Assembly: GCA_965216755.1 (NCBI GenBank)
Contig: CBDCGL010000011.1
Span: 1,088,001 to 1,152,000 of the forward strand
Reading direction: 5' to 3'
DNA from: Alphaproteobacteria bacterium
GTDB lineage: Bacteria; Pseudomonadota; Alphaproteobacteria; UBA7887
DNA length: 64,000 nucleotides
The stretch's first letter is position 1; each line of letters begins with the position of its first letter. This document shows positions 6,148 to 10,537 of the stretch, piece after piece. The notes below the pieces were generated by a model, which saw only the letters and a program-made list of their open reading frames with translations, did no database searches and was not told the DNA's origin. Made by a program: the position numbers and the translations under genes.

Positions 6148-7002
6148 TCACTCCCCTCGTAACCTCTCTGCCCCCGACAGGCGGTCGCTGAAGGTGCGTT
6201 TGTCAGGCGGCAAAACTTGTAGAGCCTCGTGTTCGATGTCCATCTCGGCCCACAACAGACGGCGGCAACCGGCGAGCATCAAAGTGCCGTCGTAAAGCTG
6301 AAATAATTTGCTTTCAAACTGCCCGGGGTCGTGCATGGCATCGATGTCGTTGTCGGCAATCTGAAACACCGGAAACAAATCGGCGCGCACGAACAACGCG
6401 TTGATCTCGGTGGTTGCGACCAACTCATAACCTTTGTCCTTACCGAGCGCGATGAGCGCGCGCAACGACGAACCTTGGCGAACGGCCGGATCGGGATCCT
6501 GAACAAAATAGATGTCGTTTGGGATCGTCGGGTTAAATTCCACCACGATCGCACGTGGCTGGTAGCGCGATAACGACCGCCAAATATGCCAGTCCAGGCC
6601 ATCGACATCGATGCTGAGCAAATCGAAGTCGACGGGGATGCGAGTCGCGGCCAATATACTGTCGAGATCGTCGGGCGGCGCCAGGCCGACAAAACGCTCA
6701 ACTAATTCGACCGCATCACGTTTGCCGTGGGTCGCCTGAAGATCGCGAAACTTTTCCGGATCCCCTTCGATCAGAACACCGCGCCACCCATGGCTGGTGA
6801 TCAAATTCCAGGTATTGGAAAAATGTCGCCCGTCCCAAGCGCCAAATTCAACACACCATTTGTTCTCTGCGCCGGCCATCGAGAAAATGCGCTCAATAAT
6901 GCCGTCCTCGCCGGCTTGAGAGGTGACGTTTCGACGTACGATGTCTAAATACGTGCTTTCCGACTTCACGCGCGACCGCGGTTCGTAACGAAGATTCGGC
7001 AT
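6148..7002 (-). CDS. FkbM-like SAM-dependent methyltransferase family protein
   Basis: SQAGEDGII, CVEFGAWDG, DLLSIDVDGLD, VVEFNP motifs. Confidence 0.7.
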   Translation of the reverse strand: MPNLRYEPRSRVKSESTYLDIVRRNVTSQAGEDGIIERIFSMAGAENKWCVEFGAWDGRHFSNTWNLITSHGWRGVLIEGDPEKFRDLQATHGKRDAVELVERFVGLAPPDDLDSILAATRIPVDFDLLSIDVDGLDWHIWRSLSRYQPRAIVVEFNPTIPNDIYFVQDPDPAVRQGSSLRALIALGKDKGYELVATTEINALFVRADLFPVFQIADNDIDAMHDPGQFESKLFQLYDGTLMLAGCRRLLWAEMDIEHEALQVLPPDKRTFSDRLSGAERLRGE

Positions 7003-7239
7003 CGATGGTTTCTGATGATTTTACAGACGCGTTAGGTTACAAAATACTCGTGCCTCAATCACGGTGCAAGACAATGATTGCGACGACTTCGACAACATGG
7101 CTAACCACATTCGACGCAGCCCGAGACATGCGACCTGAGAACTCCACAAGATCTGGTCGCCGTATCACATTGTAGAATAACGATATGCTCGCATCTGTCG
7201 CAGTTCAGACGACCTCGGCGTGCACCGCGGCAACAGAGC

Positions 7240-7767
7240 TTAATTGATGTCGTAATCCTCGAACTTTTCTGCCGCCAGAACGTACCCGGTGTCTGCCAGG
7301 GCTGTTGCCATCGTCAACACACCGAAGGCCCCAGTGACAGCGACCGGGTCAAACAGCGCCTCAAGTTGGTAGGGTTTCTCCGTCGTCACAAAGACAATTT
7401 GGTTGGGTGGCGGCGGCGGCACGTGAATACACGCGCCATAGTAGGGCACGAGGAGGAATTCGGTGCCCCCTTCGGACGTCAAATCCAGAGGAACCAGGTA
7501 GCCGGCCAGGCGTATCGTCTTACCGTTGTAATCCGTGACCACGTCGGCATCTCCTGGCCCGGAGTCCTTAAGCTTTGAGATCTGTTCATGTTCGACAATG
7601 CCAAACATGCCTTGGATATCAGCATTCGTGCTGCCAGCCTGGGCCGGAACCAGGTCCTGCCAATTGATCTCGACTACCTCGCCGGCGGCAGCCATCGCCG
7701 ACGCCCAAAGCATCGCGGCCATGGTCAAGCCAACTACAACAATTTCGATGCCAAAACGTTTCATCAC
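7240..7767 (-). CDS. DUF3299 family exported protein (ZrgD-like)
   Basis: Signal peptide; INWQDLVP, GYLVPLD, EFLLVPYYGACIHVPPPPPNQIV signature. Confidence 0.9.
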   Translation of the reverse strand: MMKRFGIEIVVVGLTMAAMLWASAMAAAGEVVEINWQDLVPAQAGSTNADIQGMFGIVEHEQISKLKDSGPGDADVVTDYNGKTIRLAGYLVPLDLTSEGGTEFLLVPYYGACIHVPPPPPNQIVFVTTEKPYQLEALFDPVAVTGAFGVLTMATALADTGYVLAAEKFEDYDIN

Positions 7768-7815
7768 TCAGTCTCCCTCGCCCCATTTCTTACCGCGCGC
7801 CGCCGCCCCGTTTGG

Positions 7816-8400
7816 CTAGATCAACCCGCCCAGATCGAGATTTCTGCTGTCGCGGTCGATCGCGTGCGCGGACTGGCCCTTGTCCGTGATAAGACTGACC
7901 GTGAGTTCCTCAGCCGCCGGGAACTGATCGAAATACGCAAAGTCTATCGAAGAAATTTTTTCCGGATCCGAACAAGACAACGCATATTCCGCGTGAAACT
8001 CGTTGTGGTTCGCCTCGCCCGCGGCGCCGTGCTCATCATGTTGGTTATGTTCGTCTTCCGCCGCGTGATCATCGGCCTCGTCGCCGACGATCGCCACCTG
8101 GCTCGACTCCACGGCGCAACCCGCCGCGTCCGGGAAAACCATAATATCCAGCGGCCGGGCCAGAACAGATCTTGCGACTTCGACCGACGCTTTGTCGTCA
8201 TCGCTCACCGCGGCGTGCTCAAATCCGACAATGTCGGCGCCCGGCACTTCGAGCTCCATCCATACGGAACCACCCTCAATCGCGATGTTCAGCGCCCCAT
8301 GACCATGTTCGTGGGCGTCAAGTTCGCGCCGGTCCTCGTCTGCAATCGCCGGCCCGATCCAAAGTACGGTCGCCAAGCCCGCCCAAGTAAGATTGCGCAT
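7816..8400 (-). CDS. zrgA: DUF2796 periplasmic zinc-binding protein (ZrgA-like)
   Basis: Signal peptide; AHEHGHG, PGADIVGFEH, His/Asp/Glu-rich loop, HNEFHAEYALSC. Confidence 0.88.
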   Translation of the reverse strand: MRNLTWAGLATVLWIGPAIADEDRRELDAHEHGHGALNIAIEGGSVWMELEVPGADIVGFEHAAVSDDDKASVEVARSVLARPLDIMVFPDAAGCAVESSQVAIVGDEADDHAAEDEHNQHDEHGAAGEANHNEFHAEYALSCSDPEKISSIDFAYFDQFPAAEELTVSLITDKGQSAHAIDRDSRNLDLGGLI

Positions 8401-8413
8401 TTGGTAAAATCCT

Positions 8414-8501
8414 CATCTGATTGTCTGTTCCAAGCGCGCCAACCGGGCGTTGTTCGCGCGAACAACCCCGAGAGACCCGCGATCAAAAAATCAATCAGAT
8501 G
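8414..8501 (-). promoter_or_regulatory. Nested stem-loop linking the leader-ORF stop to the zrgA SD (putative translational attenuator)
   Basis: Perfect 10-bp inverted repeat CATCTGATTG (8414-8423) / CAATCAGATG (8492-8501) enclosing an 18-bp palindrome GTTGTTCGCGCGAACAAC (8449-8466); the 3' arm abuts and overlaps GAGGA. Confidence 0.7.
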
Positions 8502-8803
8502 TGTGGCGGCGCGCGAATGCGGACACGGAGGGAGCGGTCATATTCCGGCGCCGCTAGCGCCGTGCGCACACTGCGGACTCGCCAAGCGCGAGGCAGCGGA
8601 CAATTTGGCGCCGCCGCCAATAGGCTTGGCGGGAACACCGCCAATTGACAGGCCTCCGAGGCTTCCGAATCAAAATGATCGTCGGCGTGCGCCGCCACGT
8701 CATGCAGCCACGCATGTAACCAGCCAGCAACGAGGCAGGCCGCCGCAAACCAAACGAGTCCACGGCCTTGGTGGCGGATAGGCTGAATCACACCATGGCG
8801 CAT
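8495..8803 (-). CDS. Leader protein with TM/signal segment, His/Cys motif and C-terminal RAPP (DUF2946/DUF2607-like putative arrest peptide)
   Basis: LVWFAAACLVAGWL, HAWLHDVAAHADDH...ACQL, ends RIRAPPHI-stop directly upstream of zrgA. Confidence 0.75.
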   Translation of the reverse strand: MRHGVIQPIRHQGRGLVWFAAACLVAGWLHAWLHDVAAHADDHFDSEASEACQLAVFPPSLLAAAPNCPLPRAWRVRSVRTALAAPEYDRSLRVRIRAPPHI

Positions 8804-8876
8804 AACGCCCTGATCCTAACAGACCTCTCCGCGCGATGCTCCAGAATGTTACGCGCGACGTTGTCCGATTGGCCGA

Positions 8877-9542
8877 TCAGCCACCGGCGCCGTGCGTGCC
8901 GCGAAATGGCGCGATCAAGGCCTTCAAGTCGTTGATACGGGCTGTCGGTAACACGACGACGGCAAAACTGCCGAACTCCATGGCATATCGGCCAGCATCA
9001 TCCGGGGCCTCATCACCAACGAAATAACGTATCAGCGGTCGTGGCGACGCTACATCGTCATAGAAGGAAATCGTCATTTCCGGCCGCAGCACGCCATAGT
9101 CCTGCACGGCGCCACCAGCATCGATATCCCGTATGACTGTGGCGCCGGCAAACGCGCTCAATGAAATGCCGATCGTCGCCGCGCGACCTCGACCAACGCC
9201 TTCGGTTACTGCGCTCTGACGGCCAGTCGTGTTGCCTTGAGATCCAGAAGCGACGTAAGACCAGTGCCCCCTGCTCGCCCGTACGAAACGATACGTCGTG
9301 CCATCGACGTCGATCTCCGCGGCCGCAATCTTATCGAACGACGCCGGAACCAACGGCCGCCCCGTATCTGCTTTTGGCCGTAGATGAAGGTGGGCGCTCG
9401 GCAAGATATCGATAACGCCATACAATTGCAGCCCAACACCCACGCCCAACAGCCCAACGGCCAACACACCGATCCACCGAGCGCCAATCGCCACGTCATT
9501 TACCCCGAATTTGCATCCAAGCCAAACACACCATCGGCGCAA
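8877..9542 (-). CDS. Membrane-anchored hypothetical protein (DUF4340-like)
   Basis: N-terminal TM, QDYGVLRP and VGDEAPD motifs; start uncertain. Confidence 0.55.
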   Translation of the reverse strand: MRRWCVWLGCKFGVNDVAIGARWIGVLAVGLLGVGVGLQLYGVIDILPSAHLHLRPKADTGRPLVPASFDKIAAAEIDVDGTTYRFVRASRGHWSYVASGSQGNTTGRQSAVTEGVGRGRAATIGISLSAFAGATVIRDIDAGGAVQDYGVLRPEMTISFYDDVASPRPLIRYFVGDEAPDDAGRYAMEFGSFAVVVLPTARINDLKALIAPFRGTHGAGG

Positions 9543-9899
9543 AGTGTCACATGCGTTCTGATATTTCCATGGTCGCGACCGATTCTGTTATCGCATCAAT
9601 TTGCGCCATATCACAGACACCACAAGGCAGATTGCCTGGCGAAGCCCTACCGCGCATGGCTCCACAGCCAACGTCGCACCAATGATGCTCGCACCCGCTG
9701 CGACAAACCGCGATCGATACTATCCGATGATATCATGTCCGGCTTTTATTTAGTTACCTTAGTTTTACGCTACTCATTATCCTGCATAAGTTATATGCGG
9801 CAATTGGAGCAGTGTCCGACAATATTGAACCAAGCGTATAACCTTCCGGGATGCGAAAAATCTCGAGTGCCACACCGCTTGCAGCCGCGACCGAAATCA

Positions 9900-10043
9900 A
9901 CGCTCAAAGCCCAAATTGCTGAACAAGACCAGTTGGGTGACGCCGCACACCAGGACTTCGACGCCTCCGGCGCCCTTAAAGTCAAATCCGCTGCATTGCG
10001 CGACGAAGTCGTGAAATTCCTGGGTAAGGTTCGGGCGGCCTGA
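9900..10043 (+). pseudogene. C-terminal remnant of a methyl-accepting chemotaxis protein
   Basis: GDAAHQDFDASGALKVKSAALRDEVVKFLGKVRAA-stop resembles the typical alphaproteobacterial MCP C-terminus; the upstream frame shows no MCP similarity. Confidence 0.65.
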
Positions 10044-10045
10044 TC

Positions 10046-10537
10046 TCAGGCAATGAGCTTTTCAATCGTCCGCAAGACCCGCGGGGCCCGCGGGGATGTG
10101 ATGGTCGAAAACCAGCCAGCAAAGCGGCCCTCACCATCAATCAGGTATTTGTGAAAATTCCAGCGGGGCCGGCGCATAACGCCGGCGCATTCGCCCGCCC
10201 ACCGATAAAACGGGTGGGCGTCGGCGCCGGTGACCTTCACCTTTTCGGTCAGGGGAAATGTAATTCCGTATCGGACACTGCAATAGTCTTTGATCTCTCT
10301 CCCGTTGCGCGGTTCTTGTTCCAAGAAGTCGTTCGAAGGCACGCCGATCAGCACAAAGGGATCGTCTTGCAAACGCTCCCACAGCGCCTGCAAATCTTCA
10401 AATTGGCGCGCAAACCCACATTCGGTGGCTGTATTCACCACAAGCATCGCGCGCCCCCGATAGGCGTCCAGAGGTAAGCTGTTACCATCCAATCCCTCAA
10501 AAGTGAATTCATGAGCCGTGGTTTCCGACATCGACAT
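10046..10537 (-). CDS. Glutathione peroxidase (Cys type)
   Basis: VVNTATECGF, GVPSNDFLEQEP, PRWNFHKYLID. Confidence 0.93.
   Translation of the reverse strand: MSMSETTAHEFTFEGLDGNSLPLDAYRGRAMLVVNTATECGFARQFEDLQALWERLQDDPFVLIGVPSNDFLEQEPRNGREIKDYCSVRYGITFPLTEKVKVTGADAHPFYRWAGECAGVMRRPRWNFHKYLIDGEGRFAGWFSTITSPRAPRVLRTIEKLIA

Follow-up and report, generated by a model that had tools for sequence, protein, structure and literature searches.

Does the small open reading frame (ORF) that ends in RAPP just upstream of zrgA control the zinc-binding protein encoded behind it, and what would such a leader sense? The question arose from a locus in the window, by which we mean the whole 64,000-nt stretch of alphaproteobacterial DNA that was analysed. 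An earlier note on this DNA had described a 102-aa ORF ending in RAPP-H-I-stop 94 nt upstream of zrgA, and had proposed that a ribosome stalled at RAPP would open an mRNA stem that masks zrgA's Shine-Dalgarno (SD) sequence. Overall, we give a probability of roughly 0.6 to the reading that the RAPP leader and the anti-SD stem form a zinc-uptake switch, in which a leader stalled at low zinc would free the zrgA SD.

Layout of the leader-zrgA locus

The leader ORF was confirmed at 8803-8495, and the spacer from its stop codon to the zrgA ATG (8400) is 94 nt long. The features of the locus are listed below, with the basis of each in brackets.

8814..8817, minus strand: SD-like AGGA of the leader, 10 nt 5' of the leader ATG (read from the sequence)
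8803-8495, minus strand: leader uORF, 102 aa, ZrgD-like, C-terminal RIRAPPHI-stop (ORF, profile search, alignment)
8705..8761, minus strand: hydrophobic helix, residues 15-33, signal peptide or N-in anchor (hydropathy, AlphaFold)
8648..8716, minus strand: candidate metal site, H30/H34/H43/C52 (family alignment)
8504..8515, minus strand: RAPP codons, with the predicted P-site Pro99 at 8509-8507 (sequence and the assignment in PMC10951233)
8492..8501, minus strand: 5' arm CAUCUGAUUG, made up of the last codons, the stop and +3, mostly under the predicted footprint of a stalled ribosome (folding)
8444..8470, minus strand: inner hairpin, -15.1 kcal/mol (folding)
8414..8423, minus strand: 3' arm CAAUCAGAUG, adjoining the SD (folding)
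8410..8414, minus strand: zrgA SD GAGGA, 9 nt 5' of the AUG (read from the sequence)
7816..8400, minus strand: zrgA, ZrgA-family zinc-binding periplasmic protein, 194 aa (PF10986)
7240..7767, minus strand: zrgE (DUF3299), likely co-transcribed with zrgA (domain match; name per Table 1 of PMC9817125)

The zrgA product matched PF10986 with 169.8 bits (E 6e-50) and NF047873 with 166.7 bits, the latter under the family cut-off of 185. Between the upstream gene and zrgA, the counts of promoter-like and terminator-like signals stayed at shuffle level and no promoter or terminator was found; Rfam gave no match in 7000-10100 at E<=1. DNA contigs from three of four runs covered the stretch with zero differences, all from a single study that may be the source of the sequence. 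A 397-aa ORF on the plus strand (7588-8781) was treated as a shadow frame. Upstream of the leader lies a DUF4340-like gene (8877-9542, minus strand, below cut-off), and a similar gene precedes the leader in L034, L037 and L039. On the other side, 237 nt 3' of zrgE, an FkbM-family methyltransferase (6148-7002, minus strand) is probably unrelated.

A leader family with conserved His, Cys and RAPP

The leader carries a hydrophobic stretch with a mean hydropathy of 1.64 over 19 residues (15-33), and its AlphaFold model shows a single confident helix from 13 to 44 (pLDDT 71, pTM 0.34) that is uninformative on the metal site. Hydropathy and model both place a hydrophobic helix near the N-terminus, a candidate for the export signal or TM segment of DUF2946 proteins. 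A lipoprotein reading of AAAC23 was ruled out under the lipobox rule, since the -3 residue and its context are unconserved.

No family in Pfam or NCBIfam matched the leader. A word-indexed search returned three relatives, and a profile of eight sequences, run against 1.84 billion representative proteins, retrieved 28 at E<=1e-3. We aligned 25 of the 28, leaving P0014, P0022 and P0026 unaligned. H30, H34, C52, P99 and P100 are invariant in all 25 relatives; H43 is kept in at least 90% of them, and L54, P58 and R97 are nearly invariant too. In every aligned relative a Cys stands 44-46 residues before the first residue of the motif (C52 is 45 before R97). By contrast with this fixed distance, the His region tolerates insertions of up to 58 aa, with the first HxxxH at -66 to -125.

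The earlier note had read the His patch as a replacement for the CxxC of copper leaders. This turned out to be too simple, as the family keeps a Cys at the CxxC-equivalent distance in addition to three His. The window leader has the single Cys52, and CxxC occurs in three of the 25 family members. Among the 35 cluster representatives of zrgA leaders described below, however, the full CxxC is present in 18, and every one carries a Cys at -44 to -50; because of these counts, His enrichment, as judged from the sequences, accompanies the Cys motif rather than replacing it. The His-only CutF-like leaders in print precede Ni/Co genes (PMC9973294).

We also filtered the whole 5.0-Mb genome for ORFs with the motif 1-6 codons before the stop, a Cys at -42 to -50 and a hydrophobic N-terminus. 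The filter returned two RAPP ORFs and one RGPP ORF, against none for the AAPP and AGPP controls. The RGPP leader, near G000:C11 4816241 on the minus strand, has a CxxCxxxC motif and lies 132 nt before a His-containing, exported-looking protein; it looks like a copper leader of the CruR/DUF2946 type.

Relation to ZrgD and to known arrest peptides

The leader is the positional, and probably also a distant sequence, counterpart of Vibrio ZrgD (DUF2607, PF10795), a relation that the earlier note had missed. ZrgD is the product of the first gene of zrgDACBE (PMC9817125, Table 1); PMC9820375 calls it a hypothetical protein with a single TM and assigns it no part in regulation. Like the leader, it has about 100 aa, one hydrophobic helix, a His-rich patch, a Cys at -45 and a RAPP-type end, and it sits directly upstream of zrgA. 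We compared the leader family with the leaders of f242, a gammaproteobacterial family that appears Vibrionaceae-like. With hhalign the two aligned at a probability of 90% (pairwise E 1.7e-6, 89 columns), a score partly due to helix and motif, and the similarity ran over the whole length from helix through His, Cys and linker to RAPP. The Atlas cluster nearest to the leader among those bearing a Pfam family is DUF2607 at 0.93, which we take as a lead only. PF10795 itself matched neither the leader nor any of the 25 family members, and it matched 14 of 28 aligned f242 leaders at E<=0.1. Unlike the ZrgD operon, the window locus has neither a Zur box before the leader nor zrgCB in the same operon.

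The Pfam test for DUF2946 (PF11162) was negative for the leader as well; five of the 25 family members gave weak matches below the cut-off (best E 0.052). The single Cys52 departs from the CxxC of DUF2946, and the genes behind the leaders (zrgA, a porin with a ZnuA-family ABC importer, a ZrgC-related ABC gene) depart from its copper-gene context. The spacing is shared: 44 residues lie between C52 and R97, compared with 45 between CxxC and RAPP in CruR, where the spacing is functionally required (PMC9426467). We conclude that the leader is real and conserved, and that it is ZrgD-like within a wider CutF/CruR-type class, while failing the Pfam tests for both DUF2607 and DUF2946.

Three characterised systems invite comparison. 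CutF of Rhodobacter capsulatus (DUF2946-like) shares the exported leader, a metal motif, a Pro-rich stall and an SD-shielding stem. It differs in sensing copper, in its CxxxC and in a PPP-type, EF-P-sensitive stall, and metal turns its gene on for detoxification; the window leader has His3-Cys and RAPP, the metal is likely zinc, and it would turn the gene off. CruR of Bordetella pertussis (DUF2946) shares the RAPP end, the fixed Cys-RAPP spacing and the place at the head of an uptake operon, and metal relieves its stall (PMC9426467); it differs in its CxxC, in copper, in an output through Rho-dependent termination and in a dispensable signal peptide. The arrest peptides ApdA and ApdP share the placement of the RAPP core, close to the C-terminal end of a small exported protein (PMC10951233). 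They differ in lying upstream of sec/yidC genes and in sensing export with no metal site, whereas the target of our leader is zrgA.

RAPP by itself is reported to be insufficient for arrest (PMC12992588). In 28 zrgA leaders of f242 the motif occurs as RAPP, RSPP, RDPP or RGPP, with R, P and P invariant. RDPP and RSPP are common natural variants in the f242 loci L170-L239, and they match substitutions described as partly arrest-permissive (PMC12992588).

An anti-SD stem anchored at the RAPP codons

The mRNA folded into a long nested hairpin, and the complementarity that the earlier note had seen between the last codons and stop of the leader and the flank of the zrgA SD held good: CAUCUGAUUG (8501-8492) pairs perfectly with CAAUCAGAUG (8423-8414). 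The inner hairpin (8470-8444) is real too, although it had been quoted in plus-strand orientation, and relatives retain it with unrelated sequence. The perfect 10-bp helix covers just one base of the SD (GAGGA, 8414-8410); in the ensemble two further SD Gs pair with Cs of the Pro codons (probability of being unpaired 0.04 and 0.06). For the 161-nt region 8380-8540 the folding energy was modestly low (z -1.15; 27/200 shuffles), and for the RAPP-to-AUG stretch, a narrower one chosen afterwards, z was -2.68 (2/200 shuffles). The pairing of the two arms beat 200 of 200 composition-kept shuffles of either arm.

We then quantified the pairing across relatives. Clustering at 45% identity reduced the 80 leader loci to 35 clusters. 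For cognate and for swapped partners we computed the duplex that a 24-nt segment at the predicted P-site forms with the 22 nt preceding the start codon. Cognate duplexes averaged -9.7 kcal/mol, compared with -7.4 (sd 0.35) for swapped ones. Since Pro codons pair with any G-rich SD, additional controls were included. The cognate excess persisted in GC-binned swaps (p up to 0.02 at high GC, <0.001 at low GC; all p-values here overstate the case, given the relatedness of the clusters and the single family that supplies many of them). When the Pro codons or the SD were held fixed in shuffles, the mean z was -1.25 and -1.06, with 25 of the 35 clusters below zero in each case; the window locus reached -4.5 and -4.7. 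No excess pairing appeared in ten of the 35 clusters. Within the leader family the duplex was -15.2 against -10.9 kcal/mol for swaps (p 5e-5, 24 loci; p 0.03 for the seven zrgA loci taken by themselves). Across the family loci several base-pair types occur at each stem position, a descriptive result drawn from each sequence's own fold. Three of the 24 family loci showed no stem at P>0.5.

Where along the leader the pairing lies bears on its function. A positional scan placed the maximum at 0 to +18 from the P-site. In the loci whose stop comes at least seven codons past the motif, the pairing went with the RAPP region, and not with the stop, in 11 of the 12 clusters that are informative, with the reservation that in such loci the stop region is close to the SD and geometry itself limits pairing there. 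The distance from P-site to AUG was also steadier (57-72 nt, sd 4.5) than that from stop to AUG (3-54 nt, sd 12.3) over 55 loci in 20 clusters. Together, the pairing at RAPP and the steady P-site-to-AUG distance favour stalling over simple termination coupling. They also bear on the idea that the leader monitors export, like SecM or ApdP, or merely couples zrgA translation to its own, with no metal input. The hydrophobic N-terminus followed by RAPP is indeed the ApdA/ApdP layout, and the 5' arm of the window locus takes in the stop codon, so that a terminating ribosome would briefly open the arm as well. The invariant His, His and Cys at a fixed distance, and targets that are metal-uptake rather than sec genes, nevertheless argue against a leader blind to metal, and we regard this idea as unlikely.

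The edge of the footprint of a stalled ribosome lies at +15 from the P-site, and the mRNA was blocked up to that position in the folding predictions. With RAP placed in the P-site following PMC10951233, the footprint lowered the predicted cost of opening the SD (-18..-5) at the window locus from 9.7 to 4.6 kcal/mol, with a residual stem of 6 bp persisting immediately 5' of the SD. The footprint helped by more than 1 kcal in 16 of the 24 family loci and made opening worse in none. In the first 20 zrgA-leader loci, a calculation without a matched control, opening became easier by at least 1 kcal in 12, harder by more than 1 kcal in four and little different in four.

On this comparative evidence, pairing between the stem and the SD region is under selection, and the stem is anchored at the predicted RAPP stall site. 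Leader and stem are both kept across relatives, the stem with changed sequence, and the comparison supports this part of the earlier note's reading: a RAPP uORF that is conserved, and a stem against the SD that falls within the predicted footprint if the ribosome stalls at RAP/P. Selection for SD-region pairing also counts against control of the CruR type, in which the stalled ribosome would block Rho-dependent termination in the spacer and the stem would be secondary. Such control has been shown for CruR, which likewise heads an uptake operon (PMC9426467). It fits less well here, where no intrinsic terminator was found in the leader-zrgA spacer, and in V. parahaemolyticus the zrgD and zrgA mRNAs rise nearly equally under zinc limitation (147- and 206-fold; PMC9817125, Table 1). 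We consider it very unlikely.

Distribution and targets of the leaders

Matches to the leader profile occurred in 12 of the order's 23 genomes and in 8 of the 401 from the class. In the family, 24 loci combine an intact motif with a clear downstream gene. Seven of these leaders precede zrgA and 14 precede porin-like genes; the rest precede a ZrgC-related ABC ATPase, a TonB receptor and an unclear target, one each. A ZnuA-family binding protein lies 3' of the porin in the window genome and in 11 of 11 further loci fetched, two porin loci being left out of this downstream extension. The window genome itself has a paralogous leader locus (G000:C11:3613812-3618150, L245; L247:5768-10151), where a leader with a long His-rich insertion heads an uncharacterised 483-aa porin-like gene, followed by a ZnuA-family ABC importer (PF01297 binding protein, ABC ATPase and ABC-3 permease). 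The spacer there is again 94 nt and holds the same kind of anti-SD stem in another sequence.

Scans by class, order, phylum and pattern gave a broad sample of 158 zrgA loci. An upstream R[AGS]PP ORF marked out 26 of them, and 20 were kept after three spurious and three duplicate rows had been removed. Rows with the motif in unrelated frames were L060, L114 and L145; L029, L041, L140 and L156 were removed as duplicates, and L263 is a degenerate duplicate of L034. L256, L273 and one L266 copy were removed for having no motif, and the second L266 copy for having no clear downstream gene. With 20 distinct leaders among the 158 loci, the leader is, by its distribution, dispensable in evolution. Degenerate leaders, with truncation, frameshift or a duplicated RAPP end, were seen in L031, L034, L256, L266 and L273, suggesting repeated loss of control.

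A contig scan with ZrgA alone as the query found no relative, and one with a tight alignment returned mostly leaderless alphaproteobacterial loci. A metagenome scan yielded one locus out of 132 pattern matches. In f242, zrgA is present in 103 of 121 genomes, and 59 of the 70 newly fetched loci carry a leader with RAPP, RSPP, RDPP or RGPP.

The nature of these targets matters for polarity. In an opposite, CutF-like arrangement, metal would cause the stall and ZrgA would be made in zinc excess as a buffer. CutF works in this manner with an SD-shielding stem, a zinc-excess sensor role has been suggested for a Pseudomonas ZrgA homologue (PMC9820375), and zrgA stands apart from zrgCB in the window genome. 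That the same leader family heads porin-ZnuA-type importers, and that related leaders sit in Zur-repressed operons induced by zinc starvation (PMC9817125), makes this polarity highly improbable in our view.

Zur boxes, and zinc as the proposed signal

A position weight matrix for Zur boxes was built from 25 boxes at leaderless zrgA genes, one of them a mis-cut seed (score -26.9) that stayed in the matrix, with a threshold of 14 of our choosing. Boxes at or above this score were found upstream of 64 of 80 leaders, and for f242 taken separately upstream of 63 of its 64 leaders. Of 143 leaderless zrgA genes, 61 had such a box no more than 250 nt away, a count that is partly circular. The window locus has no Zur-like box upstream (best score 6.8), and neither do the other six zrgA-linked loci of the family; of 17 other family loci one, the porin-linked L264, has a strong box (score 21). 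The genome does encode a Zur-like repressor, in a znuA/znuCB-zur cluster (G000:C11:1637670-1641160; L248:3670-7160) with the genome's best box (20.9) in the divergent promoter.

Eleven zrgA loci belong to the window's family. Six have an intact leader without a box, three a box without a leader, and two (L031, L034) a degenerate leader and no box. This leader-or-box pattern, though the numbers are small, suggests from sequence that the leader stands in for Zur at the window locus.

Several other boxes were recorded. At the paralogous locus there is a weak Zur-like box (score 9.2). The zrgC and zrgB genes, apart from zrgA-zrgE at G000:C11:3481262-3479269, lie behind another weak one (score 12.4); in their region (G000:C11:3478592-3483942) they neighbour another related ABC pair, as well as two small genes that look exported and are DUF3299-like by eye. 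At L097 a RAPP leader is combined with a strong box (22.5) inside the 187-nt spacer, an arrangement that would decouple the leader.

The missing box at the window locus is one reason to ask whether the same stall-and-stem switch answers to a signal other than zinc, such as a different metal (Ni, Co, Mn or Cu) or the Cys redox state. The porin-linked binding proteins score similarly against Zn, Mn and Fe proteins, ZnuA-family proteins bind Mn or Fe as well, the Cys spacing matches that of copper-sensing DUF2946, and the Ni/Co genes preceded by His-only CutF-like leaders are of the HupE/UreJ kind (PMC9973294). What speaks for zinc is that V. cholerae ZrgA binds it (PMC9820375), together with the Zur-like boxes before related leaders in f242 and at L264. 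We see a non-zinc signal as improbable, though the most serious of the alternatives.

A proposed zinc-uptake switch

We therefore return to the low-zinc-on switch and set out how it might work. The ribosome would pause at RAP/P with the hydrophobic helix inside the translocon. With zinc absent, the pause would persist, the 5' arm would stay covered and zrgA could initiate. With zinc bound by H30/H34/H43/C52, the chain would be folded or pulled, the ribosome would finish and the stem would close. We infer stalling, zinc as the ligand, the polarity and the compartment alike. The polarity follows from the consideration that uptake genes must be on in low zinc. As for the compartment, the ribosome tunnel holds about 30-35 residues. 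Counted back from the P-site Pro, H34 is at 65 residues and H43 at 56, and both would thus be past the tunnel, which would put sensing at the outer face of the translocon. By analogy, the switch would combine a CruR-like input with a CutF/SecM-like output. The earlier note had proposed zinc-responsive sensing in the periplasm; the gene context is what points to zinc, and a sensing site in the periplasm is putative.

Published data on V. parahaemolyticus are of interest here. Under zinc limitation a promoter-only fusion changes about 2-fold, compared with 147- to 288-fold for the mRNAs (PMC9817125). The gap may leave room for a post-transcriptional layer, an ambiguous sign given a possible plasmid effect.

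Relation to published work and significance

The pairing of leader and zrgA is already catalogued. In the source data of Fig 4B of PMC12992588 (EMBO J 2025), DUF2796 lies downstream of 137 RAPP compared with 2 AAPP small uORFs (268-fold) and is one of 30 enriched downstream classes. The source data also give the sequences of such leaders, many annotated DUF2607, with 31 leader rows among the matches listed. In the main text of that paper the terms 'zinc', 'zrg', 'DUF', 'stem-loop' and 'Shine' are absent, and it gives no mechanism or test for the DUF2796 loci, while proposing His/Cys metal sensors in Streptomyces. DUF2796 was not found in the supplements of PMC9426467 or in the examined part of those of PMC9973294, whose neighbour table may list ZrgA.

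The 137-to-2 ratio also weighs against the ORF being a small secreted accessory protein or a relic beside an incidental stem, as do the conserved RAPP-type motif, Cys spacing and cognate stem. Such an accessory or relic would account for the degenerate copies in relatives and for V. cholerae zrgD knockouts, which, as cited second-hand in PMC9820375, show no growth effect under chelators. A null knockout is equally compatible with a cis element, because the deletion would remove the 5' arm too. We give this explanation hardly any credence.

A literature search that covered few subscription journals found no paper on ZrgD as a regulator or on a zinc-responsive arrest leader. Four points appear to be new: the proposed anti-SD switch, a role for ZrgD, targets of the porin-ZnuA kind and the leader-or-Zur pattern. 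More broadly, and at slightly less than even odds, ZrgD-type leaders could be widespread, unrecognised zinc-sensing arrest peptides, in which a His3-Cys site at the translocon outer face gates uptake via an anti-SD stem. In Vibrionaceae-like genomes they would act alongside Zur, and in the alphaproteobacterial family they would take its place.

In the literature searched, metal-sensing arrest peptides have been shown for copper only, in CruR and CutF. If true, ours would be the first zinc-responsive ribosome-stalling switch found there and would extend the principle to a second metal. It would bear on the question, raised by PMC12992588, of whether and how RAPP leaders outside sec operons regulate their downstream genes. 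It would also supplement Zur control with a translational layer that possibly faces the periplasm, and would assign a role to ZrgD, an orphan encoded at the head of the zrg operon.
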